This document shows, piece by piece, positions 43,149 through 61,187 of a stretch of DNA of 64,000 nucleotides. The stretch is from a virus. The DNA is taken from the IMG/VR virus record IMGVR_UViG_3300009124_000002, positions 32,001 to 96,000 of that record. One strand, 5' to 3'. A model generated the notes under the pieces. It was not told where the DNA came from and ran no database searches. It was given only the letters and a program-made list of their open reading frames with translations. Position numbers and translations under genes: made by a program. The first letter of the stretch is position 1. Each line of letters begins with the position of its first letter.

Positions 43149-43841
43149 TCATAGTCCAAAAGCAGTAATGGTATGTTCAAATGGATTGCCTTCAATATTC
43201 TTCACCAAGTCAAGCATCATCTGAGCAATCTCACGAATCTCTTTCTGAGCTTCCGGTTTGTTTCGCAATCCCTGAAAGTGATAGAATGATCTCCAGTTGA
43301 ACATCACATCTGACGTAATCCTGCTATTGTAGGTCTTGAAGAATCGAGCAGATTCCTTGGCACGTTTGCGACCCAGAACAGGTTCAAGATCAGCAACACA
43401 TTGGTGATAAAGGTCATTTCCTTTTCTGGTATATTGTTCTAAAACCTCAGTCCAGTATTCTGTTGGAAACGGAAACTCATTTCCGTTAATATCCCTTGGC
43501 ACAATGGGCGGGGGAGATTTCTTAATACCAGCCCAATCATCAGGCACAATATACTTGTCTTCTTTCAGTTCCTTGTATCGAGCAGATTCAGCATTTAATG
43601 ACACTCCGATACGATGTTTAAGAAGGTGAATATGACTAGCAATATCGCAATCGACCAGAAAGTGCAGAGAAGACTTCTCGAAAGGTGTGTGGTGACCCTC
43701 TTTAGCGAGGAAGCTGAGTAGTTGCGGTATTCTGTTTCGTTTCTCATCTGTAATCTCTCGACTGGTGGAAGTCCATGCGCTACAGGCATGAACCTCATCA
43801 TCACCGTAGTATCCGATAAGTTCTACTGTATTATTGTTCAT
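43149..43841 (-). CDS. thyX: flavin-dependent thymidylate synthase
   Basis: H.TPFE, KHR......ESARY, KESARF. Confidence 0.9.
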   Translation of the reverse strand: MNNNTVELIGYYGDDEVHACSAWTSTSREITDEKRNRIPQLLSFLAKEGHHTPFEKSSLHFLVDCDIASHIHLLKHRIGVSLNAESARYKELKEDKYIVPDDWAGIKKSPPPIVPRDINGNEFPFPTEYWTEVLEQYTRKGNDLYHQCVADLEPVLGRKRAKESARFFKTYNSRITSDVMFNWRSFYHFQGLRNKPEAQKEIREIAQMMLDLVKNIEGNPFEHTITAFGL

Positions 43842-44077
43842 TAAACTTCTTCCAATGGGCAATGTTCACTTACTACTTCAATTTCTGCGTAATCAAAAAG
43901 CTCGTATCCGTGCAGCTTGAACACGGCGTCTTCAAAAACAACTTTGCCTTCAAGGTCGTAATATTCGTGATTTGCGAGAATCATTCTCGCCGTGATAGTG
44001 TCGCCCTCATAGATGTCAACACCATTCTTGTCCTTGAGTCCAGCGGGGGTGCGTAGATCGCGCTCTTGTTCTTTCAT
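43841..44077 (-). CDS. YopX-like protein
   Basis: GLKDKNGVDIYEGD; consensus TTGACA-17-TATAAT promoter at 44087-44115. Confidence 0.7.
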   Translation of the reverse strand: MKEQERDLRTPAGLKDKNGVDIYEGDTITARMILANHEYYDLEGKVVFEDAVFKLHGYELFDYAEIEVVSEHCPLEEV

Positions 44078-44124: not shown

Positions 44125-44625
44125 TCATTTGAAAATCCTGCGAATGTTCTCGTCGTCAATGTCAAATCCCTTTTTCAAGTATCTAGTCATTCTTCTTGCT
44201 TGAATGATATTTCGATTCACAGTCTCTGGCATTCCTGCAAACCACTTTTCACTTCCACCAGTATAGACCAATTTCTTAGCATGAAGATGTGTGAAAAAAT
44301 CGGGATGATGGCAACATTCTCCAAGGTTGTCTTTGGCAATACTACACACAGTATAATCGAAACACTCAATAGTTTCTTGTGGCGTTGCGCCCATGTGAAG
44401 CAAGTCATAAACCTTTCCTTCAAATTCAATTGAGTCACCAAGTCTTAGTTTCTTGACATGAGTGCCGCCTTTACTCAGCAATGTCTCTACTGCTCTTTCT
44501 CTTTCAGATTCAGTAGCAAAGAAGACATCAATGTCCTTTGGTGTTGTGTTTAAAAGCTCTGCAAGAACAGCACCACCAGCAACCCAACAGTGAGAATCAA
44601 AATGGCTTAGGAAACTCTGAATCAT
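44125..44625 (-). CDS. minimal nucleotidyltransferase (CCA/poly(A) polymerase head-like)
   Basis: WVAGGAV....PKDIDVFF, FDYT. Confidence 0.75.
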   Translation of the reverse strand: MIQSFLSHFDSHCWVAGGAVLAELLNTTPKDIDVFFATESERERAVETLLSKGGTHVKKLRLGDSIEFEGKVYDLLHMGATPQETIECFDYTVCSIAKDNLGECCHHPDFFTHLHAKKLVYTGGSEKWFAGMPETVNRNIIQARRMTRYLKKGFDIDDENIRRIFK

Positions 44626-45050
44626 TTTCCAGAAGAACCAAATCCACCCATACCACGATGAGTAGGATTGAAAAAATCATCAACTACTTCAAGTTCAAAT
44701 GGATCAACTCGCTCAAAGATGATTTGAGCAATACGATCCCCTTTCTTGAATTCAAATGGATCTTCACTGGTATTCAACAGAACAACCCCAATTTCATTGC
44801 GATATCCAGAATCAACTACACCAGCAAGAACATCAATACCATTCTTAACTGCAAGCCCAGAACGTGGGGCAATACGACCATAGTAACCGCGAGGAATTGC
44901 CATTGCGATTCCCGTCTTTACAATGGTTCGAAATCCAGAAAAGACCTTGCCATCTTCATTAGCATAAATGTCCCATCCAGCATCATCTTCATGTGCCTTC
45001 GTTGGTACGAGTGCGTCGTCAGACAATTTTTTTATAGATACAATATTCAT
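44622..45050 (-). CDS. dut: dUTPase
   Basis: AGWD, PRSGLA, GVVDSGYR, RIAQ, RGMGGFGSSG. Confidence 0.97.
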   Translation of the reverse strand: MNIVSIKKLSDDALVPTKAHEDDAGWDIYANEDGKVFSGFRTIVKTGIAMAIPRGYYGRIAPRSGLAVKNGIDVLAGVVDSGYRNEIGVVLLNTSEDPFEFKKGDRIAQIIFERVDPFELEVVDDFFNPTHRGMGGFGSSGK

Positions 45051-46341: not shown

Positions 46342-46794
46342 TTAGATATTGATTTTACGGTATTCTACTTTTGCTTCTTTGAAGAATTCTGCTGCTCTCA
46401 TTGTGGATGACATCCATTGTGGGGAAGCTTCCATTGTATTTACAATGACTCTCTTGATGCCTACCTGAATAACAGTCTTGGCGCATTCATGACAAACGGG
46501 AAGACCATACACATAAAGAGTGGTGCCGTTCAGACACTTTCCTTTCCTTGCAGCAGTGCAGATTGCATTCACCTCTGCATGAACAGTGTAATTGTATTTC
46601 ACGACACGGTTTTCAAATCTTTCACCTGTATCTTGAAATCCACGGGGAAAGCCATTATATCCCATAGAGACAACATCATGACTTGGACCTTCTTCAGCAA
46701 TCACTGCACCAATCTTGGTTGTATCTTTAGACCAAGATGAGATGTGTTTTGCGAGCTCAAGGAACTTACGGTTCCACTTTTGCTCAGAGGTCAT
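46342..46794 (-). CDS. cd: dCMP deaminase
   Basis: GYNGFPRG, HAEVNAI, CHEC. Confidence 0.9.
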   Translation of the reverse strand: MTSEQKWNRKFLELAKHISSWSKDTTKIGAVIAEEGPSHDVVSMGYNGFPRGFQDTGERFENRVVKYNYTVHAEVNAICTAARKGKCLNGTTLYVYGLPVCHECAKTVIQVGIKRVIVNTMEASPQWMSSTMRAAEFFKEAKVEYRKINI

Positions 46795-46972
46795 TGGTTT
46801 TGTTTCGTTGTTCTTCACAAGCTTCGGCAATATATTCACAGTATTCTTGGAGGGTTTTGAGGTTAATGGACGAGACGGTAGAAAGACCATATTTGTCAAT
46901 CATTTGTTTTAATTCATTTGCCTTGACCATAATCTTGTGATGTGATGTTTCTTCCATTTCAATTATTATACA

Positions 46973-48193: not shown

Positions 48194-49937
48194 TCACAGT
48201 TCCTCACTTATGTATTTTAATGCCAGTTCTTTGGAACCGCAAACGTATCGATCCTCGTAACCACCCTTCATTGTCCGAAACAGAATCCAGTTGGGGCTAT
48301 AGACACGAACCTCACCATCCAGAGTTCTAGCACGACAGAAGGTTGCGTATCGGTATTTCTTGTCTTGACTGAGACCAGTATTAATTCCATAAACTTGATC
48401 AAGGTCTGCTTCTTGCAGTGCCTCGATCAAGTCTTCTAGGATTTCTTCACGCTTGCTCATTGACAAACTCTTTCAAGAATTCAATTTCCTTCTCAACATC
48501 CTCTTCGGTAAGGTAACCATTCACCTTACTGCCCCACTCAGGAACTTCTTCAAGGTCACCAGAGGGACCATAGAAACCAATCTCGTAGTGACCCTCCCTG
48601 CCCCCATAAGACCAATCATGACGAATCACAGAGGCTTTACAGCCATTACCCAAATCGACAATGGCTTGAATGGCATCCAGACCAAATGCCGAACCCATCT
48701 TTTCAAATTGCAATTCATTGAATTTCATTTTATCGCTTGTTCTTGTTTTTCTCATACCAATATTTTCCTGAATCCCGGAGCATTTCATTGCTGTTTCGGA
48801 TATGCTCTAGTTCTGCCTTGATCGTCTCATAGAGCGATTCCGCAAACCGTAGTTTGTTCTCTTCAGCGAGATCTTTAAGTTCATCAACCATGTGAATGAC
48901 ATGGTCGATGTAGGGACACGTATTTGCCGGGATGGGCGGGGATTCATCTTTTTTGTTCATGAATTATCTATGTTCTCAAGCACATCCTCCAAGAAGTCAA
49001 CTTCAGACTTCTTTTGAATCAGTTTTTCTCGCACTTCACTGGCAAGCCATTTCTTGTCGTGCATTCGACGTTTGAACTGCTCCCAACCCACGCACTGTTC
49101 CCCAGCAACAACTAGTTGAAAGAGTTTCATTCTATCTTCAGGTTTCATTTCGTTTTTCATATCAATCCTCCACTTCCAATTCAACAACATACCAATTATC
49201 GCAGTAACGCAGGTTTTCCTTATACTTTCCATTAGCAGCTTCGTTAGCCTTATCTTCCGAAGAAAACAAAGAAACCAAAGAAACCAACTCAGTGCCTGAG
49301 TAGTTATACTCTTTGAACAATCCGTAAACTTTCATAATTTTGATACTATTAGATTTTTTGTTGTATGTCAAGTTTATTGCCCACTCATGACAAATGTGGA
49401 CTTGTCGAGGCGAGCGACATACCTCTGACCAACACCACCTTGAGCAACACCATCACGCCTCCAAGGGATGATGGTCACAAAGGCAGAGTTCCCCTCAATC
49501 TCATCAACGCGAACAATCGCGCCAAAGTTCTCAATGATGTCACCAACCTTGATGTTGGTCTTGTAGTTGGGTTTGAGTTTCATATCGGTATTCATAATTC
49601 AATTCATTTCTTAGCTGATACCAGACCAACGAACCCTGCTGAAGTCACCAGTGAAGATGTTCCCGCGAGAGAAATTAGTGGCGGGAGCCTTCCATGAAGC
49701 TGCCTTGAGAATGTCGCCCTTGGCAAATCCCTTCTTGGGGTTGTCCTTCTTGGCAACAAACCCAACCACGCTCCTCTGATTCCCAGAGTCAACGAAAACC
49801 TTGTCGTAGTTGCGACCAGAATCGTCAAGGTGAAAGGTGTATCCAAGGCGAATTCCAGAAGGGCGATTGGCATCCTGCTTGCCCCAATCGTTTCGAATGT
49901 GGGAGAGGAGGTTGTTCAGTGCTTTTTCGTAGCTCAT
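48194..49937 (-). other. run of ~7 small early hypothetical genes
   Basis: ORFs 48194-48466, 48447-~48728, 48730-48960, 48957-~49160, 49162-49335, 49374-49595, 49611-49937 behind promoters near 49343-49371 and 49963. Confidence 0.65.
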
Positions 49938-49962
49938 AGCGTTCTTTCTCATTACGAGAAAG

Positions 49963-50011
49963 ATTCTGCCTGAAGATCGCGGATCCGACAACCCCTAAAA
50001 GCACTTTTTTT
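49963..50011 (-). promoter_or_regulatory. early promoter cassette (identical to 15589-15637)
   Basis: 49-bp exact repeat containing TTGTCG-17-CAGAAT. Confidence 0.8.
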
Positions 50012-50036
50012 CACTTTTTTCGTAAGCTCCGCAGTA

Positions 50037-50588
50037 TTAGGAACTTACAACTTTCAGGAGAAAATCCACGATATTTTCAGTGTTTTCATGGGTTTCATGT
50101 GGCATCTCGATCACGCATCCCTTCTCCTCTCCGAAAAGGGTCTGTTTTGGTCCGAACTCCGTGATAATATTCTGGACCTTGGTGCGGACTGTGGAGATGA
50201 ACCTTTCGGGCTGACTCGAGCCTCTCTCGGCGTATCTCCGCTCCCTCTCGGCGTCCGAGACCGTCAGGTGGAGGATGGTCAGATCATCACCGCAGGAGGA
50301 AAAGAAAGTCTTGTTGTTTAGACGATCTCCTTCTCCCACGATCACTTCATTCGGTTTCCCAGAAACGAACTTGACTGCTTCAGGGCAAACCGCCATGGAC
50401 AAGCGATCGGTTCCACTGAAAGTCTCGCCCTCTTCATACTTACCAAGCACACGAATGTTGCCTGATATATGAGTGTCAAGGAGATTGACAGGTCGATCCG
50501 AGGTCCACCCATCAAAACGACTCATGAATTCCTTCATGACCGTAGACTTGCCGGAGCCGGGAAGTCCAATGAGATAAACAACCTTCAT
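50037..50588 (-). CDS. P-loop nucleotide/DNA kinase of base-modification systems
   Basis: GLPGSGKST, FSGTDRLSM, EGDRL, RGS.Q. Confidence 0.75.
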   Translation of the reverse strand: MKVVYLIGLPGSGKSTVMKEFMSRFDGWTSDRPVNLLDTHISGNIRVLGKYEEGETFSGTDRLSMAVCPEAVKFVSGKPNEVIVGEGDRLNNKTFFSSCGDDLTILHLTVSDAERERRYAERGSSQPERFISTVRTKVQNIITEFGPKQTLFGEEKGCVIEMPHETHENTENIVDFLLKVVSS

Positions 50589-51991
50589 GCGAAGAAATCG
50601 TCAAGTGTGCTTACTTGTTGGCGAGCTTCGGGGTGATATTGTTTGAGCATATCCTCGCCACCTCGGTCAGCAAGATAATCATACCATTCACCCTCATCCC
50701 ACATTGAAGGAGAAACTCCATTCCAAAATGGTTTCCAGAGAGGATGTTCCTCATTCTTGCGGCGATCATCAACGTATTGCTTACGAAGTGCTTCGTATTC
50801 CCATGAGCCAAGCTTGTCCATATCTTCACGAAAATAGAAGACCAACGACATACGCAACATGTCTTCATCACCAGAATCAGGCGCAGAGATCGGAGTATTA
50901 CCATGAATGATTCTCATGTTATCAATCAGCAGTAGATCTCCCGGTCGAATGTTGATTGCTGCACGAACTTCTGGTGTTACCAGATAACCACCTTTCCAAT
51001 CTTTACCGTCCTTGGTCACAACTGTGAGGTTGGAATACCCAGCATTCAAAGAACCGGCATCACGATGACAAGCCATGCGAGCATTGCGATCCTTGCTTGT
51101 GGTGTTAACAGTAATTGTAGTGAATGTGGTGTCTTCTCCGATTAGAAAGCGATTGTCAAGACGATCAGCAAACTCTTTCTGTTTTGCCCATCTTTCAGGA
51201 AGCAATCGCTTGAACTCAGCTTCAAGTTTGCGGGCAAAGGGGTAGCACTTATCAAACTGCTCTCGGTTATGATCGGTGTAAGCTGTTGCGCGACCATAAG
51301 GAATCCGAGGATACCGACCATAGAAACCAGCAATGCCAGACCAGATTGGAGTAGCGTAACTGGTAGCAGAAACAAACTCTTTTCTCAGCTTCTTCGAGTA
51401 TGCTTTAGCATCATCAATAGACATACCAATCATCTTCTCAAGAGCCAACGGGAAGAAACCTTCGTATGTCCCAAACTCTTTCTCAACTCGAGAGCGCAAC
51501 CACACCTCACCGCGAGTCTCATACTTTTTGTTTTGGTGCTGTTGAAAGATGTTATCAAGAGGATCATCGCCATCGATAGACTGTGGTTGACCTTGTTCAA
51601 AGTGAGCAAGAATATCTTGCTGATAAGGAGTCACCCAATCTCTATTCCCGTCCTTGTCACCTCTGGGACCAGCTGCATGCCCACGGTTATTGGATTCAAC
51701 AGCAGCTTCATACAGACCATCGAAAGCGCCAAGCTGTTCTTCCGGCGTGAACGTGCCTTTGCGAAACTTAAAGGCAACGCAATCTTCACCTAGCTCATCT
51801 CCGGCATCGAAGCCATTCTTTGGCAAGTAGAAATCAGCATCGCTATCAACAAGAATATCGTATGATCCCTCATCAACCAACTTACCAAGAAGGTCATCTT
51901 CATTAACCACAAATTGGGCAATATAGACATCTTGACCCTCATCGCCTTTGAACTTCTTCCACTTCCGACCGTTTTTTTCGATTATTTCCAT
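50585..51991 (-). CDS. TET/JBP family 2OG-Fe(II) dioxygenase
   Basis: FTTITVN, HRDAG (HxD), GDLLL, HGNT, RMSLVFYFR. Confidence 0.85.
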   Translation of the reverse strand: MEIIEKNGRKWKKFKGDEGQDVYIAQFVVNEDDLLGKLVDEGSYDILVDSDADFYLPKNGFDAGDELGEDCVAFKFRKGTFTPEEQLGAFDGLYEAAVESNNRGHAAGPRGDKDGNRDWVTPYQQDILAHFEQGQPQSIDGDDPLDNIFQQHQNKKYETRGEVWLRSRVEKEFGTYEGFFPLALEKMIGMSIDDAKAYSKKLRKEFVSATSYATPIWSGIAGFYGRYPRIPYGRATAYTDHNREQFDKCYPFARKLEAEFKRLLPERWAKQKEFADRLDNRFLIGEDTTFTTITVNTTSKDRNARMACHRDAGSLNAGYSNLTVVTKDGKDWKGGYLVTPEVRAAINIRPGDLLLIDNMRIIHGNTPISAPDSGDEDMLRMSLVFYFREDMDKLGSWEYEALRKQYVDDRRKNEEHPLWKPFWNGVSPSMWDEGEWYDYLADRGGEDMLKQYHPEARQQVSTLDDFFA

Positions 51992-52006
51992 ATCTGTTAT
52001 ATTCTA

Positions 52007-53020
52007 CTAAACTATGAACTTATCCAACCCAATATCATTTATCTCATTCGAGAAGGTGCCTCTATGATCAATCTTCCCACTATCAAGGAAGAGAGACATC
52101 TTACCCTTATTCACACAATTTGTCAAGTATTCTTCTCGTAGAGTTTCTCTCCTTGCGTCCCACATAGGTTGCCAATCAATACCGAACCAATTGTCTCCCT
52201 CAACCTTCTGAATCTCTTCAGCCTGTCGGTCAATGTAGTATCCAAGGTAGCGACCATTGCGAACTCGAAACAACTTCTTGAACGAACACAGACATGTTTC
52301 CATGGCAAAATAATCTGCCTTGTCTGCTACATTAGGAAATCTCTTCCTCACTTCAGCCAGCATCTCTGCTGCCCTTGAATTCAACATAGAAAGTTGGTCC
52401 TTGTTTAGTCTCTGATTGACCCACTCGTCTTCACCAACAGCATAGCAAAGACCATTGCGATGAGAACGGCTTCCTGAGTAGTCATGCAACCAAAGATTGT
52501 CAACATCCAGATTCACCTTGGCGCATTGCTTTAGAGTCTGAAGGTAGAACCATGAAGTGTAACGTCCGAACTTGTGCCAACCATTGACCTGCTCCCACAG
52601 GTTCTGAAAGGTTTGATTTGCATCATCAGTCAAATGCTCAGAAAACCTTTCGTGTTGCGTCTTATCGCCAACCCATTCCTTGTAAGACTCAAACTGATCA
52701 GCCAAATGCCCCTTGTTCCATTTGGTGTCCGTTTGATAGCGCAACCGACTGTAGTTTTCGTTGTTCCACTCACGAAGACGTTCAACACCTACCAACTCCA
52801 TATCAGGAAATTCATTCCAGATGAGGTAAGCTGTGGGGAAGTGATACGTTGTCCCATACAACCAAACCAACCAATACTTTTGCTCAAGATTGTATTCAAA
52901 CCGATCAAAGAAATAGTTGGTCATGTAGAGAGCAGAGTCGCAATCATCTAACTCAAGGGACCAACCAAACCAATTGATGAATGCTTCTTCTCTGTTTTCT
53001 TTAAGTCTGTAATCCATCAT
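52007..53020 (-). CDS. amino acid:DNA transferase (aGPT-Pplase2-like)
   Basis: EQKYW..WLY...Y, FGRY..W.YL, ETCLCSFKK, RYLGYYIDR. Confidence 0.75.
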   Translation of the reverse strand: MMDYRLKENREEAFINWFGWSLELDDCDSALYMTNYFFDRFEYNLEQKYWLVWLYGTTYHFPTAYLIWNEFPDMELVGVERLREWNNENYSRLRYQTDTKWNKGHLADQFESYKEWVGDKTQHERFSEHLTDDANQTFQNLWEQVNGWHKFGRYTSWFYLQTLKQCAKVNLDVDNLWLHDYSGSRSHRNGLCYAVGEDEWVNQRLNKDQLSMLNSRAAEMLAEVRKRFPNVADKADYFAMETCLCSFKKLFRVRNGRYLGYYIDRQAEEIQKVEGDNWFGIDWQPMWDARRETLREEYLTNCVNKGKMSLFLDSGKIDHRGTFSNEINDIGLDKFIV

Positions 53021-53661
53021 AGAAACGCATCTATTGTAACTGGTTCTGCGATACTTTCAAGAGAATTTCTGAGCCATGAATCACCAACAGCCTTGATTGC
53101 CCCAAGAACCTTCTCTGTTTTCTTGACGCCAAATCCATGAGACTCAAGGGATTCATTTAAAAATTGACACACAACCTTGGCGTCTGGAACGGCAAGTTTC
53201 GGAGACGCTATAGCTTTCTCTCGAAACTCAAGTTGTTCCTTGCGGGTTGGGAAAAGTGGCTGGTCGCTGCGCAATGAGCCAGAACGATCCACTGCCCAGA
53301 ACACAAGACCGTTTCGATTATGCCATGTCACAGAAGTTGGAGTACATGATAACTTCAATCTTCTCATACCCGAGTTGTATGCATCAGCCATGACTTCCTC
53401 CCATATGCGACTTGCATATCCATTGCCTTCTTTGCCTTCGATTGTGACTATCTCATAAAGGTTAATATACTTCGACCTTTGGCTGTATGTGGCAAATACA
53501 AGGGCGACGACTTCTCCGTTATCCTTTAGTGCAAAGGGAGGGTGCTTATCATAATTCTTGAAGCGATACCAGAGGCTATGAGCAGCAGAAAGAAACTTGG
53601 TGTTCTTTCCCGGCGAAGACTCATTGATAATATCCTCGGTGTTTTTAATTCTTTCTATCAT
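53017..53661 (-). CDS. GNAT-like acetyltransferase
   Basis: LYEIVT....GNGYASRI acetyl-CoA motif. Confidence 0.65.
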   Translation of the reverse strand: MIERIKNTEDIINESSPGKNTKFLSAAHSLWYRFKNYDKHPPFALKDNGEVVALVFATYSQRSKYINLYEIVTIEGKEGNGYASRIWEEVMADAYNSGMRRLKLSCTPTSVTWHNRNGLVFWAVDRSGSLRSDQPLFPTRKEQLEFREKAIASPKLAVPDAKVVCQFLNESLESHGFGVKKTEKVLGAIKAVGDSWLRNSLESIAEPVTIDAFL

Positions 53662-54329
53662 CGCTGCAAGTCCTTTATTTGATTCTCTTCAATAAAGTCT
53701 CTGTGCATGTCCATTATGGTTCTTTGTGCGCTATATTGACGAAACATTTCGCACTTCTGGGGATTAACCAAACCAGCTCGAAGAGCGATATCTTTGGTTG
53801 AGGTAAAAACAACATCACTGTCATTGAACACTGTTTTCCAAAGAGGTCTTGCCTCATTACGATATGCCCAAATCATTTTAGACGCATGAAGTTCAATCAC
53901 TGCCATACTACTAGGGCGAAAGAAAGTGAGTGGGTTCTTATCGTTCTCAAGCGCACGAAGAATAAGCTCGCTGTCATTTTTGGTTTCAGTCTTGTAACAC
54001 CATTTGTCTGGTGGTTCCTGAGATATGACGCCATTGTGAACTATGGAGATTTGTCCATTGCTAAATGGTTGATTGTATCTTAGGTCTGATGTTGAGTATC
54101 GAATGTGACCAATAAGAGAAACGCTTCCATCAGAATCAATCACCCGATTAAGGTCAAACGTATCAAGAAACTCTTCTGACGGAACGCTTTCCTTGAATGT
54201 TTTCAATACACCATCAACCACATAACTGATTCCTGTTGCGTGTTTTCCGCGAATCATAGACTGTTGGAAGATCCTTTGAATCAACCCAACGTCTGCCTGT
54301 TTCATTTGTATTCCGATTACTGCGCACAT
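53658..54329 (-). CDS. stand-alone class II (Ntn) glutamine amidotransferase
   Basis: N-terminal MC, RG..ATG, GHIRYST, NQPF, HNGVI, NDSE. Confidence 0.85.
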   Translation of the reverse strand: MCAVIGIQMKQADVGLIQRIFQQSMIRGKHATGISYVVDGVLKTFKESVPSEEFLDTFDLNRVIDSDGSVSLIGHIRYSTSDLRYNQPFSNGQISIVHNGVISQEPPDKWCYKTETKNDSELILRALENDKNPLTFFRPSSMAVIELHASKMIWAYRNEARPLWKTVFNDSDVVFTSTKDIALRAGLVNPQKCEMFRQYSAQRTIMDMHRDFIEENQIKDLQR

Positions 54330-55249
54330 AAAACGTGTTGTATTGCTCTGTCTGCTTCTGCTTCCATAGGTCTGTTCTTATACCATGCACCCGATTGGTT
54401 GTCTATCTCTCGGCACAAGGCGGCGATTTCATAACAAGTTATGGGATAACCTCTGCGAATAGCTTTACTTGCGATGCTGGTCATTATCCGATACATGTGT
54501 CGATACCAACCAGTGCCGGAGATCAAAAAGTATTGTTCGACTAATTCTCTGTTGATAAACGGGCAATCTTGCCAACCAACCCAACTGTATTCTCTGTTCG
54601 TAAGTGTTCCCAGTTTAGATTGCATGACCTTTCTTTGCATATCCTCAGGCAACCCATGAACAAGTGTCTGTGGCTGAGTGTTTACGAAAGGATGCTTTCG
54701 CATAAAAGCAAATGGATTCAAGTATTCGCCTTTGTGCGTGAAGATGAAATTGTGAGCACCGGGGTATCGGGCAGGAACGTAATACATTCGACTGACATCT
54801 TTGGTTTGCTTATCGCCCATTGTCGCAAACTCAGTGTTCATAGCATGCCAAAAGTGACGTAGTTTATCAGCAAGCACCACGCCATTGAAAGGAAGGACAA
54901 CACGAAACTTTGGGTGATCTTCGGTAGACGAAGCAGTTGAGTAGCACACATAATAGTAGTCTGAGAAGACCACCAGTGCATCATCAAAAGAACCCTCATA
55001 CTCATCAACATCAAGTGCTGCCCAACCATTCCATGAAACCACATTGTCGTTTGCTCGAGTTGTCCCTTCCTTGTATGAGGCAGGGCTGATTAACGCCGAT
55101 CCTCTTTTTCTGTCTCCTCTTTTGGGCTTGTAACCTGGCTGCTCGCTAAGGGAATACAACAATTTCTCAAAGCCTTCGAAGGAATCGAAAGACATCTTTC
55201 GATGAGTCTTGTTATCAAAGATACCCTGAAAGAGTGTTAGCGAAGTCAT
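54317..55249 (-). CDS. primase-polymerase-like protein
   Basis: ALDVD, YSTASS....KFRVVLP, D...KD.SRMYYVP. Confidence 0.7.
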   Translation of the reverse strand: MTSLTLFQGIFDNKTHRKMSFDSFEGFEKLLYSLSEQPGYKPKRGDRKRGSALISPASYKEGTTRANDNVVSWNGWAALDVDEYEGSFDDALVVFSDYYYVCYSTASSTEDHPKFRVVLPFNGVVLADKLRHFWHAMNTEFATMGDKQTKDVSRMYYVPARYPGAHNFIFTHKGEYLNPFAFMRKHPFVNTQPQTLVHGLPEDMQRKVMQSKLGTLTNREYSWVGWQDCPFINRELVEQYFLISGTGWYRHMYRIMTSIASKAIRRGYPITCYEIAALCREIDNQSGAWYKNRPMEAEADRAIQHVLCAQ

Positions 55250-55263
55250 GCCTCTATTATACC

Positions 55264-57774
55264 TCAAACAAAGAAATCTTCAAGAGTTACAATCTTCTCC
55301 GGTGCCCAGCCAATCGCATCAAGAACGAACTTCAGTGGCTCAAGAAATGCTTTCTCAAACTGTAGGTCATGATTGATGTATTTCTCCAACCCAAACTCTT
55401 CAGGCAGAACTGAGTTGAACGCAATGACATTTTCGCGAATAGGGTTTGGGATATGCAAGTAGACATACTTCATCTTGTCTCCGTTACGAATAGACTCAAA
55501 CCGATTCTGAAGACCGTTTTTCTTCAGGTGGTGATTGTAGAGAAGTGACGCTCGAACGTGCATTGGAGTCCCCTTGTCGTAGATATTAAGGTTGTCTTGA
55601 TAGTTGGTCACGTTTGACACGCCACGGGGAAAGGCGATCTTCTCGACCGGGATCTCACGAAAGGCTTTCTTGAAGTCAGCGATTGCTGCTTGTGTCGTTT
55701 CCTCATCGGTGGTAAGGATAATCTTAAACATCTCCTTCATCGCTTCCCGGCAGACTTGAGGTGTTGAAGACTTGACTGCCTCGATGCCCATGATCTTCAG
55801 TTTTGGTTTTGCATACTGAACACCCTCACTGTTGTGAACATTCAGGATGTATCGTTTCTTGGCAGTCCAGATACCACGGTCAGCAATCACTTCCCGTGCC
55901 ATGACCATACGATTCTTGTATGAGTTCATGGTCACTGCAAAACGCTCAAACGCTTTCTTCAGAACAGGCTCGATTGCAGTTGAACCAAGTTCATCAAGGA
56001 ACGCAACCGGGTCTTTTGGTTTTGCTTTTTGAATAACATCGTTGACATTCACATAAACAGAGTCAGTGTCAATCGCAACCACTCGGTCTTTGTCCTCACC
56101 AAGTGCTTTGTTAAGGTATGCATTCAGTTCTTTCTCTGCATACCGAATCACAGACTGACCTGTCAGAGTCACGCCTTCAGCAATACGCAAGTCAAAGTAT
56201 CGAAACCATATGTTGCCCATTGCGCCATACAAGGAGTTGAGTAGAATCTTCACTGCCATCTGCTCAGTCTCACAACGAGCAATCTCTCTTTCAATCGATG
56301 GGCTTGACCCCTCTTGCTCCATGCGTTGTTGTGCCTTGAGCATTTGCTGTTTGATCATGACACGCTTGTCATACAACTCCTGAATGATCTCAGGAATGAT
56401 ACCCTGCTTGTCCTTACGATAGCATGAACCATTTGCAGCAACAGAAACATCATCTTCAGTAAGGCAACTATCTGCCTCAAGCACCTTGTCAGGATTCAAT
56501 CCATCGATACGAGTATGCGGTATCAAAGTCTCTGGTGACATATTGCATTGAATGATGATGTTGGGATACAGAGAGTTCAAGTCAAAGGACATCACCCAAT
56601 CATGAAGACCAACATGAGGTTCCTTGACATACCCACCAGTGAATCCCGTCCGATGATGCTTCTTGCTTGGAGGAATTGCGACCTTCTGTTGCGCCAATCT
56701 GCGAAAGATGATAGAGTCCCAGATACCCACGGTCCCAAGTGTGTCGCTATAGTTTACGCCACCAAGGTATGCCATCGTCAGAACCAGATTGATAAGACCA
56801 ACCTTGTCTTCCATCTTCTCAATCAACTCAACGTCCACGATATTGTAGTCAACGAAACGCTGATAGTCCTGCTCATAGAGTTTCTTGAGTGACCCCAAGT
56901 CAGTGTAGTCTACCTTCTTTGTGCCAAGCACAACATTAGCAATGTGATCAAGCTTGTATGATTCTTGATTGCCATACTTGTAACCGAACTTCTTGAACAG
57001 GTCTAGGTAGTCCAACTGTTCGATACCCTTGATCTCAAAGGCAAGTTGTTCCTTGCCCATCATCTTGATAGTCTTAGCATCATACAACCCCCATGGCGAG
57101 AGCTTCTTTGCCTCTTTTGCCCCTAAGACGTTTACAATGCGATTTACAATGTAAGGGATATCAAAGAACCGAGTGTTCCACCCAGTAATAATGTCTGGTG
57201 TGTGATCCTTGTTTGACCACCAAGCAAGGAAAGACTGGAGCATAGAGACTTCATCGGGGTATTCGTAGTATTCGATCTGAAGCCCAGTGGTGGTTTGATG
57301 TGGGTTGTAGCTCTTACCAAAACCCCAGATGCGATAGATGTCTTCTCGACTCGACTTCAAGGCGATAGTGAGGATCTCTTGATTGGCGATATGCGGATGA
57401 GGAAACCCATCATCATATGCAGTCTCAATGTCAATGTAAACAACATCGACGTTCCTTGGTTCAAACTCAATCTTGCCGGGAAACCTCGACTGAATGAATG
57501 CTGGAATGTGTCTGTCATTACCATGAATGGTATATCCATCGACACCCTCATACAATTTGATAAACTCACCCGCCTCACGCATGGTGTTGAACTTCATAGG
57601 CTCAAGCGAGGAACCAGCAAGGGATTGCCATTGAGAGGGTGAGGAGTTTTTGGATTCAAGGTAGAGTGTGGGCTTGAACGAAACCCTTTCCTCAACTCGC
57701 TTTCCTTGATTGTCGTATCCTCGGTAGAGGATCTTGTTTCCGTATTTGCAAATGGAAGTGTAAAACCCGGTCAT
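55264..57774 (-). CDS. 43: family B DNA polymerase, T4 gp43-like
   Basis: DIET, FDIPY, SFDLNSLYP, KILLNSLYG, DTDS, KKRY. Confidence 0.97.
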   Translation of the reverse strand: MTGFYTSICKYGNKILYRGYDNQGKRVEERVSFKPTLYLESKNSSPSQWQSLAGSSLEPMKFNTMREAGEFIKLYEGVDGYTIHGNDRHIPAFIQSRFPGKIEFEPRNVDVVYIDIETAYDDGFPHPHIANQEILTIALKSSREDIYRIWGFGKSYNPHQTTTGLQIEYYEYPDEVSMLQSFLAWWSNKDHTPDIITGWNTRFFDIPYIVNRIVNVLGAKEAKKLSPWGLYDAKTIKMMGKEQLAFEIKGIEQLDYLDLFKKFGYKYGNQESYKLDHIANVVLGTKKVDYTDLGSLKKLYEQDYQRFVDYNIVDVELIEKMEDKVGLINLVLTMAYLGGVNYSDTLGTVGIWDSIIFRRLAQQKVAIPPSKKHHRTGFTGGYVKEPHVGLHDWVMSFDLNSLYPNIIIQCNMSPETLIPHTRIDGLNPDKVLEADSCLTEDDVSVAANGSCYRKDKQGIIPEIIQELYDKRVMIKQQMLKAQQRMEQEGSSPSIEREIARCETEQMAVKILLNSLYGAMGNIWFRYFDLRIAEGVTLTGQSVIRYAEKELNAYLNKALGEDKDRVVAIDTDSVYVNVNDVIQKAKPKDPVAFLDELGSTAIEPVLKKAFERFAVTMNSYKNRMVMAREVIADRGIWTAKKRYILNVHNSEGVQYAKPKLKIMGIEAVKSSTPQVCREAMKEMFKIILTTDEETTQAAIADFKKAFREIPVEKIAFPRGVSNVTNYQDNLNIYDKGTPMHVRASLLYNHHLKKNGLQNRFESIRNGDKMKYVYLHIPNPIRENVIAFNSVLPEEFGLEKYINHDLQFEKAFLEPLKFVLDAIGWAPEKIVTLEDFFV

Positions 57775-57782
57775 GAGCATAC

Positions 57783-57830
57783 ATTATATACTAAAGCGGC
57801 AGGGAAGACAAGTAGTGATCCCTGCCGCTA
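57783..57830 (-). terminator. hairpin terminator overlapping the gp43 promoter
   Basis: AGCGGCAGGGA/TCCCTGCCGCT stem; contains TTGTCT-17-TATAAT. Confidence 0.6.
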
Positions 57831-57845
57831 TTGCCTCAATTTGAA

Positions 57846-58262
57846 TTAAGAACGAATGTTCAACTTCTTCGGCTTTTCGGCTTCAGGAACGATACGCTGA
57901 AGCTCAACACCAACAATACCATTCTTGTAATAAGAACCAGTAGGAGTAATGTGCTCACCCAAACGAAAGCACTTAGTGAACTTACGTGCAGCAATGCCTT
58001 TCGTTTGATATTTGCGATCATCCTTCTCTTTCTTATCACCAGTAATGGTCAGTGTATTGTCTTTCCACTCAACATCCAAATCCTCTGGTCCGAAACCAGC
58101 AACTGCCAATTCAATGGCAGAATTGTCGTCATCAATATTTATGACGTTATATGGAGGGAATGAAGTGGATTCGTCTCTGGACTGAGAGTAGGAGAGTGAA
58201 TTGAAGAGTTCTTCAAAACCAATCCAGTTAGACGGATACGATGAATACTTAGATACGGTCAT
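57846..58262 (-). CDS. hsp20: small heat shock protein
   Basis: FPPYN, IELAVAGF, GIAARKF, NG. Confidence 0.95.
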   Translation of the reverse strand: MTVSKYSSYPSNWIGFEELFNSLSYSQSRDESTSFPPYNVINIDDDNSAIELAVAGFGPEDLDVEWKDNTLTITGDKKEKDDRKYQTKGIAARKFTKCFRLGEHITPTGSYYKNGIVGVELQRIVPEAEKPKKLNIRS

Positions 58263-60208: not shown

Positions 60209-60520
60209 TCAGTCAGCACCTTCAGCGGTGACTTCTTCTCCTTGTTTTGCTTGCTCCTCTACCTCTTCTTCAGTGGTTGCCTCAGTCTTTGGAGCATTCT
60301 CCTCCAAAAATGCTTGCAGACGTTCACCAAGGGTTCCTACGTTTTTCAACTCATTGAGTTCAAATGCACCACGACGGGATGCTGCTTTAAGAACTTCAAC
60401 GGTGAAAGCAATATCACTCAAAGAGATACTTGCCTTTTGTTCCTTTGGTTCCCATCCATCCTTTACGGTGGATGCCCCTTCTTCCACTTGTTCTGTTTCT
60501 TTATCCATATCTTTATCCAT
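60209..60520 (-). CDS. acidic hypothetical protein
   Basis: A..RGAF...EL..VG pattern, between gp45 and gp44. Confidence 0.7.
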   Translation of the reverse strand: MDKDMDKETEQVEEGASTVKDGWEPKEQKASISLSDIAFTVEVLKAASRRGAFELNELKNVGTLGERLQAFLEENAPKTEATTEEEVEEQAKQGEEVTAEGAD

Positions 60521-61187
60521 TGAATGTTGATGCCTTATCCACTGCGATGAAGTATTCAACTTTGGTATCGTCAGCAGTATTTGCCCATTTACTTATAAGC
60601 TTTGAACTAATTTGAACCAGATAGTCGCCAGCCACCAAGGACAAGTTGTTGAGGTCAAAGTGCATGTCAAAGGCAACTTTGCTCTCATGATCAAGTTCAA
60701 TGCTGAACTCATTTGAAGACTTGTCCTTATCGTTCAAGGTTGAAAAACGAGTCTTTCCTTTACCCTTAGAATGAATATGGCAAAAACTACACCCAAGAGT
60801 GCGAGCAGCTGTATCAATAGTCTGCCGATCAGGGTGAGTGATAACCAACTCAACATCAACAGATGGCAAGGCGATATCCTTCGGGGGAGTCTCGAGAGTT
60901 GCCGTCTCTGCTCTGGTATAGCGCACTCGCTGATTCCCAGACTTCATGATCACTAACCTGTCATCAAACTCAAGGTCAGCGTCATCAAGGATCTTGTAAA
61001 TCGCTAGGAAGTTCTTGAGATTGTAGATACCAAACTCTTGTGGGAAGGTTTCTTCAATAGTAGCACTTCCGAGGACAGTGCGTGAACTGGAGATGGTCTT
61101 GAGCGTGGATCCCGGTTTGATCAGGATATTGTCGTTAATGAGAGAGAAGTTCTCGAGGATTCGTTTAGTGTTATTCGATAGTTTCAT
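60513..61187 (-). CDS. 45: sliding clamp, gp45-like
   Basis: MKLS..T..IL.NFS.IN, FGIY.L..FL, Y.IA; synteny. Confidence 0.9.
   Translation of the reverse strand: MKLSNNTKRILENFSLINDNILIKPGSTLKTISSSRTVLGSATIEETFPQEFGIYNLKNFLAIYKILDDADLEFDDRLVIMKSGNQRVRYTRAETATLETPPKDIALPSVDVELVITHPDRQTIDTAARTLGCSFCHIHSKGKGKTRFSTLNDKDKSSNEFSIELDHESKVAFDMHFDLNNLSLVAGDYLVQISSKLISKWANTADDTKVEYFIAVDKASTFNG

Follow-up and report, generated by a model that had tools for sequence, protein, structure and literature searches.

The 64,000-nucleotide stretch analysed here (the window) comprises bases 32001-96000 of a 119-kb IMG/VR viral contig, IMGVR_UViG_3300009124_000002, whose CheckV completeness is 66%. According to the open reading frame (ORF) list of the window, positions 50037-54329 are filled exactly by five ORFs on the minus strand, which most likely make up the post-replicative thymidine-hypermodification cassette of a T4-like uncultured phage. 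An earlier note on this DNA had assigned the five products to families from the letters alone. All five score above the curated (gathering) Pfam cut-offs, and the assignments are thus confirmed by profile hidden Markov models. In coding order the genes are:

53658-54329, minus strand: Ntn glutaminase (class II, stand-alone), 223 amino acids (aa); GATase_6 PF13522, E 2.4e-7, 31.3 bits against a cut-off of 27
53017-53661, minus strand: GNAT-fold acyltransferase, 214 aa; Acetyltransf_1 PF00583, E 2.5e-6, 28.2 bits against 20.7
52007-53020, minus strand: amino acid:DNA transferase (AADT; clade-2 aGPT-Pplase), 337 aa; ADDT PF18724, E 1.5e-25, 90.7 bits against 26.2
50585-51991, minus strand: TET/JBP (5mYOX) Fe(II)/2-oxoglutarate DNA dioxygenase, 468 aa; Tet_JBP PF12851, E 1.2e-15, 57.6 bits against 34.9
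50037-50588, minus strand: P-loop nucleotide kinase clade 3, candidate 5-hydroxymethyl-deoxyuridine (5-hmdU) DNA kinase, 183 aa; Ploopntkinase3 PF18751, E 3.6e-15, 56.4 bits against 27

The genes had been described as mostly ATGA-coupled, and 4-base ATGA overlaps indeed join glutaminase to GNAT, GNAT to AADT and TET to kinase, at three of the four internal junctions; the AADT/TET junction is a 15-base gap. The start of the glutaminase gene overlaps by 13 bases the 3' end of an upstream 316-aa ORF, and the order on the coding strand is polB, 316-aa ORF, glutaminase, GNAT, AADT, TET, kinase.

A survey of gene neighbourhoods, called for in the earlier note, was run with the AADT as anchor. Relatives of the AADT were found in 153 IMG/VR stretches, the best 80 of which were kept, and the proteins of the window and of one sister locus were mapped onto all loci. 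Counts were taken over the 29 of these 80 loci that have at least 4.5 kb upstream and at least 2.2 kb downstream; several of the 29 are near-duplicates, and the counts are not independent. Glutaminase, TET, kinase and a GNAT were each present in 29/29 loci, and the exact five-gene composition of the window in 15. Seventeen loci carry the window's type of GNAT and the other 12 a second type of 185 aa, while an Amidoligase_2-like gene occurs in 14 and a 430-aa protein in 11. Chance alone does not account for the cluster, since AADT relatives lie in 153 stretches and their surroundings repeatedly hold this gene set. Relatives of the TET at 66-80% identity were found in 12 IMG/VR loci.

The glutaminase, constant in all 29 loci with or without the amidoligase, is a core member of the cassette. 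It starts with Met-Cys and ends in an invariant D-L-Q tail, and C2, R27, G28, H75, R77, H98-N99-G100 and N118-D119 are invariant in 42 orthologues. It matches phrog_4736 (E 8.8e-17). A single-sequence search of the PDB gave no match; the family profile, which alone reached PurF, has as its best match the Ntn domain of PurF structures (E 1.6e-6), with the motifs aligned. Unlike the usual class II amidotransferases, it is a separate protein with no fused synthase or acceptor domain. Fused forms are rare: among 559 longer candidates, two proteins were found at E<=1e-10, a glutaminase+GNAT of 445 aa and a glutaminase+ADDT of 588 aa, on one contig each.

The glutaminase is predicted to dock on the AADT as a heterodimer. 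The model of the complex reached a median score of 0.83 vs 0.00 for the best control, three runs agreed in at least 96% of contacts, and the partner pLDDT was at least 88; in calibration, the mark used for such models was reached by 58/80 solved complexes and by 2/110 mismatched pairs. On the glutaminase side the modelled interface comprises residues 1, 25-30, 78, 80, 101 and 104, which form the active-site face, together with the subfamily-specific invariant C-terminus (221-223). The AADT contributes residues 39-46, 69-78 and 279-285. The AADT motif D-R-F-E-x-N (39-44) is kept in 4/4 aligned glutaminase-linked AADTs and is not kept in four other aligned AADTs, those of phage Cr30, of two Ackermannviridae-type phages and of a fusion with a pyridoxal-phosphate (PLP)-dependent enzyme. 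As modelled, this is what an amidotransferase pair would look like.

Residue C245 of the AADT is invariant in 46 orthologues and in four distant relatives (Cr30, Ackermannviridae-type, PLP-fused). In phage PaMx11, Cys247 of gp46 forms a covalent intermediate, after which phosphate leaves and an amine adds (PMC11472151); we presume that C245 is its equivalent, since no alignment of the AADT with gp46 was obtained. Among the 40 matches listed, the relatives of the AADT in cultured phages all stand at ~28% identity over ~94% of the protein. A search for longer proteins with the AADT returned the PLP-AADT fusion only, a type already in Lee et al. (2021). One such protein, P0003 (707 aa), joins a PLP-dependent enzyme (PF00291) to an AADT 32% identical to that of the window. 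The kinase carries a Walker A motif, G-x4-G-K-S-T, at residues 8-15, and its nearest cultured relative is in Caulobacter phage Cr30, at 33% identity (record 51806-52321).

The route that we favour would run as follows. The TET/JBP enzyme would hydroxylate thymine in polymer DNA to 5-hydroxymethyluracil (5hmU), and the P-loop kinase would phosphorylate the new hydroxyl to give 5-phosphomethyl-deoxyuridine (5-phosphomethyl-dU). The conserved Cys of the AADT would then attack C6 and expel the phosphate, and a nucleophile would add to the exocyclic methylene. This nucleophile would most likely be ammonia, derived from glutamine by the Ntn glutaminase seated with its active-site face on the AADT, and the product would be 5-aminomethyl-dU. 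The GNAT would acylate the amine, most simply to 5-acetylaminomethyl-dU, and TET, AADT and GNAT would ride the gp45 sliding clamp, acting just behind the fork. PMC8989533 lists masses of 257 u for 5-aminomethyl-dU and 299 u for its acetyl form. In PurF, ammonia from the Ntn glutaminase displaces a pyrophosphate leaving group, and the proposed step of the AADT and glutaminase would follow the same logic. PurF, although the best PDB profile match of the glutaminase, is offered here as a mechanistic analogue and not as a family assignment: its glutaminase is fused to the acceptor domain, whereas here the glutaminase stands apart as a 223-aa protein and a DNA base would be the acceptor.

The main rival is amino-acid use by the AADT, with the glutaminase acting later. 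The AADT would install a free amino acid (glycine, serine), as in M6, PaMx11 and ViI, and the glutaminase and GNAT would tailor the adduct to a new amino-acid-derived base; in a variant, the Ntn enzyme might serve as an amidohydrolase on a gamma-glutamyl intermediate or provide nitrogen for a later step. Such a route has precedent, the characterised clade-2 AADTs transferring amino acids or putrescine (PMC8989533), and the Amidoligase_2-like gene of 14 of the 29 sister loci would fit carboxylate work. Lee et al. list amidoligase and glutaminotransferase genes without an assigned function (PMC8989533). On the other hand, the glutaminase is kept in every locus irrespective of the amidoligase, and the five-gene form has neither an ATP-dependent ligase for carboxylate activation nor a flavin lyase. 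What is more, the model seats the active-site face of the glutaminase on the AADT, and a glutaminase-AADT fusion exists. We consider amino-acid transfer unlikely, though deserving of serious attention. The glycine-then-lyase route of PaMx11 in particular is not available, since a DAO-type flavoenzyme was not found, either as a PF01266 match in the contig or as a flavoenzyme match by any of the five genes.

In the TET, residues H309, D311, H363 and R380 are invariant in an alignment of 40 orthologues; we take the first three to be the HxD...H iron triad and R380 to be the 2-oxoglutarate-binding Arg. The structure model has a pLDDT of 80.9, and its top Foldseek matches among PDB folds are CcTet, NgTET1, TET2 and CMD1 (E 3e-9 to 6e-7, TM 0.29-0.49). 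The substrate of the enzyme is best considered together with three further genes that the earlier note had placed in the window and that Pfam matches bear out:

43149-43862, minus strand: ThyX thymidylate synthase; PF02511, E 1.7e-31
44622-45050, minus strand: dUTPase (Pfam match at 44628-45014); PF00692, E 2.4e-38
46342-46899, minus strand: dCMP deaminase; PF00383, E 3.2e-19

Because thyX is present, the phage DNA would contain ordinary T. The window had also been said to contain neither a dUMP hydroxymethylase nor a C5 methyltransferase, and this extends to the whole 119-kb contig, in which Thymidylat_synt (PF00303) and DNA_methylase (PF00145) had no match; nor had they any in five large related contigs that are 61, 73, 74, 85 and 98% complete. 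With thyX present and no ThyA-like or C5-methyltransferase match, T is the only available 5-methylpyrimidine. The TET substrate is thus most likely T in DNA, there being no other source of 5hmU or 5-methylcytosine (5mC) in the available DNA. Phage 5mYOX enzymes have been shown to oxidise T in DNA (O'Toole et al. 2026, PMC13229309).

Were the TET instead to oxidise 5mC, made by a methyltransferase encoded in the host or in that third of the genome which the contig lacks, cytosine would be the hypermodified base. Phage TETs of clades A and B do act on 5mC (PMC8256090; PMC13229309), and the contig of the window is only 66% complete. However, PF00145 is unmatched in the large relatives as well, including the one that is 98% complete, the partner families Ploopntkinase3 and ADDT belong to thymidine pathways, and a C5 methyltransferase is found in only 6% of 5mYOX pathways (O'Toole et al., PMC13229309). 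We regard a cytosine route as highly improbable.

The closest cultured relatives have single genes in common with the window only: the TET of phage C48C1 (67% identity), of Stenotrophomonas phage DLP6 (51%) and of Caulobacter phage Cr30 (39%). In C48C1 (OQ984149.1, L001 6001-9448) the genes after this closest cultured TET encode an unknown protein of 344 aa and a UDP-galactopyranose mutase (PF03275, E 5.6e-52); kinase and AADT do not come after it, and the arrangement suggests that the 5hmU of C48C1 carries a sugar, perhaps galactofuranose. Cr30 (KF301602.1, L003 5995-11158), a cultured T4-like phage, has a TET annotated as 'SNF2 DNA repair protein', an AADT (PF18724, E 1.3e-52) and a weak match to a TET-associated glycosyltransferase; a literature search found nothing on hypermodification in Cr30. 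In DLP6 (KU682439.2, L002 4241-7868) the TET homologue lies between a nucleotidyltransferase-domain protein and a peptide deformylase, and the label 'SNF2 DNA repair protein' on it is likely a mis-annotation spread among T4-like phages.

The AlphaFold model of the GNAT (pLDDT 93.5) has a helical C-terminal extension. It has 334 PDB matches at E<=0.001, and those among the matches listed are GNAT N-acetyltransferases. At E<=1e-5 the family comprises 471 database clusters, none of which bears more than a generic name. No orthology to gp48 of PaMx11 was seen, since tblastn against phage records at E<=1 gave one irrelevant match and no PaMx11 match. A minimal TET-glutaminase-AADT-kinase arrangement with no GNAT between glutaminase and AADT lies on a 4.8-kb contig (L058:1486-4827); this four-gene form may be a natural drop-out making the un-acylated base.

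Three of the cassette enzymes end in tails that resemble the C-terminus of the DNA polymerase encoded upstream. The polymerase, placed there as gp43 by the earlier note and supported by its Pfam match, and the sliding clamp are located as follows:

55264-57780, minus strand: family-B (gp43-type) DNA polymerase; PF00136, E 6.7e-36
60513-61187, minus strand: gp45-type sliding clamp; PF09116, E 4.5e-7, 26.7 bits against a cut-off of 25

The tails read T-L-E-D-F-F-V in the polymerase, T-L-D-D-F-F-A in TET, G-L-D-K-F-I-V in AADT and T-I-D-A-F-L in GNAT. When the tail motif is defined as [LIMV][DE]xF within the last eight residues, it is found in 7 of the 466 six-frame ORFs of at least 60 aa in the 119-kb contig: the polymerase, gp55, TET, AADT, GNAT and two short ORFs, one of which lies inside a longer frame while the other is a 91-aa plus-strand ORF. 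Among distinct orthologues the motif is kept in 53/58 TETs, 50/61 AADTs and 27/33 GNATs of the window's type; in the 185-aa GNAT type it is present in 5/18, and most of the others have near variants. None of 51 glutaminases, 57 kinases and 23 amidoligases carries it. The polymerase orthologues in related loci all (9/9) end in [ST]-L-[ED]-x-F-F.

In T4, the C-termini of gp43, gp55 and gp33 are known clamp-binding epitopes (Geiduschek and Kassavetis 2010, PMC2988020). The likeness to them lies in a short acidic-hydrophobic tail that is present on the polymerase and gp55 of this phage and also on TET, AADT and GNAT; the difference is that no DNA-modification enzyme is named among the clamp ligands in that review's passages on them (PMC2988020). 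A literature search found no paper joining clamp binding with hypermodification. Judged by their likeness to these epitopes, the tails of TET, AADT and GNAT probably bind the gp45 sliding clamp, and the absence of a tail from the glutaminase fits its riding on the AADT.

The homologue of the late sigma factor gp55 (191 aa; phrog_234, E 1.9e-50) is encoded outside the window, on the minus strand at 100324-100899 of the contig (L096). Its tail, N-T-L-E-P-F-M-K, is of the same type as that of the polymerase and would fit clamp-activated late transcription in this phage lineage.

It is very unlikely that the cassette serves takeover or anti-defence by acting on host DNA, on RNA or on free nucleotides: although TET/JBP relatives and GNATs act on many substrates, these genes lie among replication genes (polymerase and clamp; UvsX in relatives), three of the enzymes have the clamp-type tail of the polymerase, and, in the account of PMC8989533, DNA-polymer chemistry is the only setting in which the families of the kinase and the AADT are known.

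Returning to the route by way of thymine, kinase and glutamine, we give different weight to its parts. The general outline, in which TET, kinase, AADT and tailoring enzymes all work on T in DNA, appears quite probable. The full explanation, from TET through kinase and the ammonia step of AADT and glutaminase to the GNAT, with the enzymes tethered to the clamp, we hold to be slightly favoured, while the ammonia and acetyl details, taken by themselves, could about equally well turn out either way. In its sharpest form the proposal would make glutaminase and AADT a two-subunit glutamine-dependent DNA amidotransferase that converts 5-phosphomethyl-uracil to 5-aminomethyl-uracil, with TET, AADT and GNAT held on the clamp; this we advance tentatively, as a possibility of rather lower probability. 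All chemical steps, the donors of nitrogen and of the acyl group and the clamp binding are inferences of ours. The earlier note had proposed oxidation of T in DNA, phosphorylation, substitution with glutamine nitrogen and N-acetylation, and this sequence of steps is now partly supported: it is the best-supported route by computation, because of the predicted glutaminase-AADT heterodimer, the rare fusions, the constant glutaminase and the lack of another source of 5hmU or 5mC.

Several points weigh against this reading. The characterised clade-2 AADTs, as described in PMC8989533, all use an amino acid or putrescine and never ammonia. For some clade C1 5mYOXs that lack ParB, assays detected no activity on either T or 5mC (PMC13229309); the cassette of the window has no ParB-like gene, and its TET is not placed in the clades of O'Toole et al. 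PDB searches with the AADT sequence and profile did not reach gp46 of PaMx11 and, the gp46 structure being unaligned, the distance from the modelled interface to the active site of the AADT is not established. The calibration of the complex model is only rough because custom alignments were used, and the fusions are weak evidence because ATGA overlaps let a single sequencing error fuse genes. The GNAT fold is confirmed but is uninformative on the acyl donor or acceptor, the clamp-type tail is a short motif whose binding is argued from likeness, and completeness reaches 85% at best among relatives of the same five-gene form and is 66% for the contig itself.

Iyer et al. (2013) reportedly defined the aGPT-Pplase family and foresaw TET-linked systems in phages. 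Lee et al. (2021, PMC8989533) describe metavirome contigs with TET_JBP in place of the dUMP hydroxymethylase beside 5-HMUDK and AADT, and propose thymine oxidation in DNA; amidoligase and glutaminotransferase genes are left unexplained there. O'Toole et al. (2026, PMC13229309) divide 5mYOX enzymes into a ParB-dependent and a ParB-independent subclass; GATases, P-loop kinases and AADTs consistently accompany the ParB-linked one, and GNAT is among the co-occurring domains. The window resembles these clusters (sequences 22-25 of PMC8989533; clade C1 of PMC13229309) in having TET_JBP for the dUMP hydroxymethylase, a kinase and a clade-2 AADT, in its co-occurring amidotransferase and GNAT genes, in coming from an IMG/VR-type viral contig and in the proposal of in-situ T oxidation. 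The earlier note had called the pathway new; this does not hold, for the same kind of cluster is already in those two papers, and the cassette is not a categorically new system. Their datasets may hold this contig or kin of it. It differs from them in that the published text stresses the ParB partner, whereas the window cassette has no ParB-like gene, and in that the glutaminase-AADT pairing and the clamp-type tails are absent from the main texts of both papers. With the glutaminase-AADT pair predicted for it and its clamp-type tails, the five-gene ParB-less form is a variant that merits bench work.

Two characterised pathways offer further comparisons. In PaMx11, gp49 kinase, gp46 glycine:DNA transferase, gp47 flavin lyase and gp48 acetyltransferase lead to 5-acetylaminomethyl-dU (PMC8989533, PMC11472151). 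The logic of kinase, AADT and GNAT is alike, and the end product is likely the same. However, the 5hmU of PaMx11 comes from a pre-replication dUMP hydroxymethylase, whereas here the TET would make it and PF00303 is unmatched; and the nitrogen of PaMx11 comes from glycine trimmed by a flavin adenine dinucleotide enzyme, whereas here there is a glutaminase and no match to a DAO-type flavoenzyme. Salmonella phage ViI and the Ackermannviridae, which make 5-NeOmdU with the serine:DNA transferase gp247, are among the cultured relatives of the AADT, but use serine, a PLP decarboxylase and a dUMP hydroxymethylase, and have no TET, glutaminase or clamp-type AADT tail.

Hypermodified thymines protect phage DNA from restriction, and such pathways are sources of new DNA-modifying enzymes. 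Clusters of this kind are common in environmental T4-like phages, as the 153 IMG/VR stretches with an AADT and the 471 database clusters of the GNAT indicate, and the published texts, in the parts that deal with them, leave the product and the role of the amidotransferase unexplained. The claims that can be tested are that glutamine is the nitrogen donor by way of a glutaminase-AADT complex, that the five-gene form works without ParB, and that three of the enzymes are clamp clients. If glutamine is the donor, aminomethyl-dU would be reached by a shorter path than PaMx11 takes through glycine and a flavin enzyme, and this would be the first amidotransferase to work on DNA. If the two-subunit, clamp-held formulation is also true, PurF-type chemistry would take place on a polymer nucleobase, and thymine hypermodification would be a fork-coupled tool-belt process.

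The sister cassettes vary in their tailoring genes. In a quick maximum-likelihood tree built from 58 TETs, five-gene and seven-gene forms intermingle, and the starred branches require at least 8 changes; tailoring genes have therefore been exchanged between close relatives, with TET, glutaminase, AADT and kinase retained. The 430-aa protein (L014:11503-12795 and 13 further loci) always occurs with the Amidoligase_2-like gene and the 185-aa GNAT. It has a GIY-YIG-like N-terminus and a weak ParB_N-like middle: ParB_N matched 4/14 members of the family, with a best E of 0.004 (0.006 for the member in the 98%-complete contig), and there was one GIY-YIG match. The 5mYOX-associated 'ParB' that O'Toole et al. 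describe may be this protein. In the 119-kb contig of the window ParB_N (PF02195) had no match at E<=1, and tblastn found no match to the 430-aa protein, the amidoligase or the 185-aa GNAT of the sister cassettes. The GNAT, the 316-aa ORF and the N-terminus of TET were each considered as a hidden ParB-like activator and rejected, hhalign against the 430-aa family giving probabilities below 1%; the 316-aa ORF is also without a Pfam match. In many sister cassettes a gene for a MazG/PRA-PH-type pyrophosphohydrolase lies directly upstream of TET (L014:7570-7959; L070, L089, L090, L093, L094); tblastn gave no match to it in the contig of the window.

Around the cassette, a scan of 49500-58200 for promoters and terminators remained at the level of shuffled sequence (11 vs 13.0 expected and 8 vs 7.2 expected), and megablast of the region against the phage collection gave no match. 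No record in that collection exceeds 48.5% identity to the polymerase; the nearest are those of phage C48C1 and of T4-like cyanophages. The ORF between polymerase and cassette is:

54317-55267, minus strand: 316-aa ORF, loosely primase-like; phrog_9765 'DNA primase', E 1.5e-48

The earlier note had called it primase-like, and the name is borne out by PHROG 9765 only: Pfam at E<=10 and a PDB sequence search gave no match. It is conserved in viral clusters, and an Atlas lead points to PriCT_1 in 31% of one bacterial cluster. Its place in relatives is either between the polymerase and UvsX (L048, L062) or right after the kinase (L014), and it is probably a replication gene that stands outside the cassette proper.

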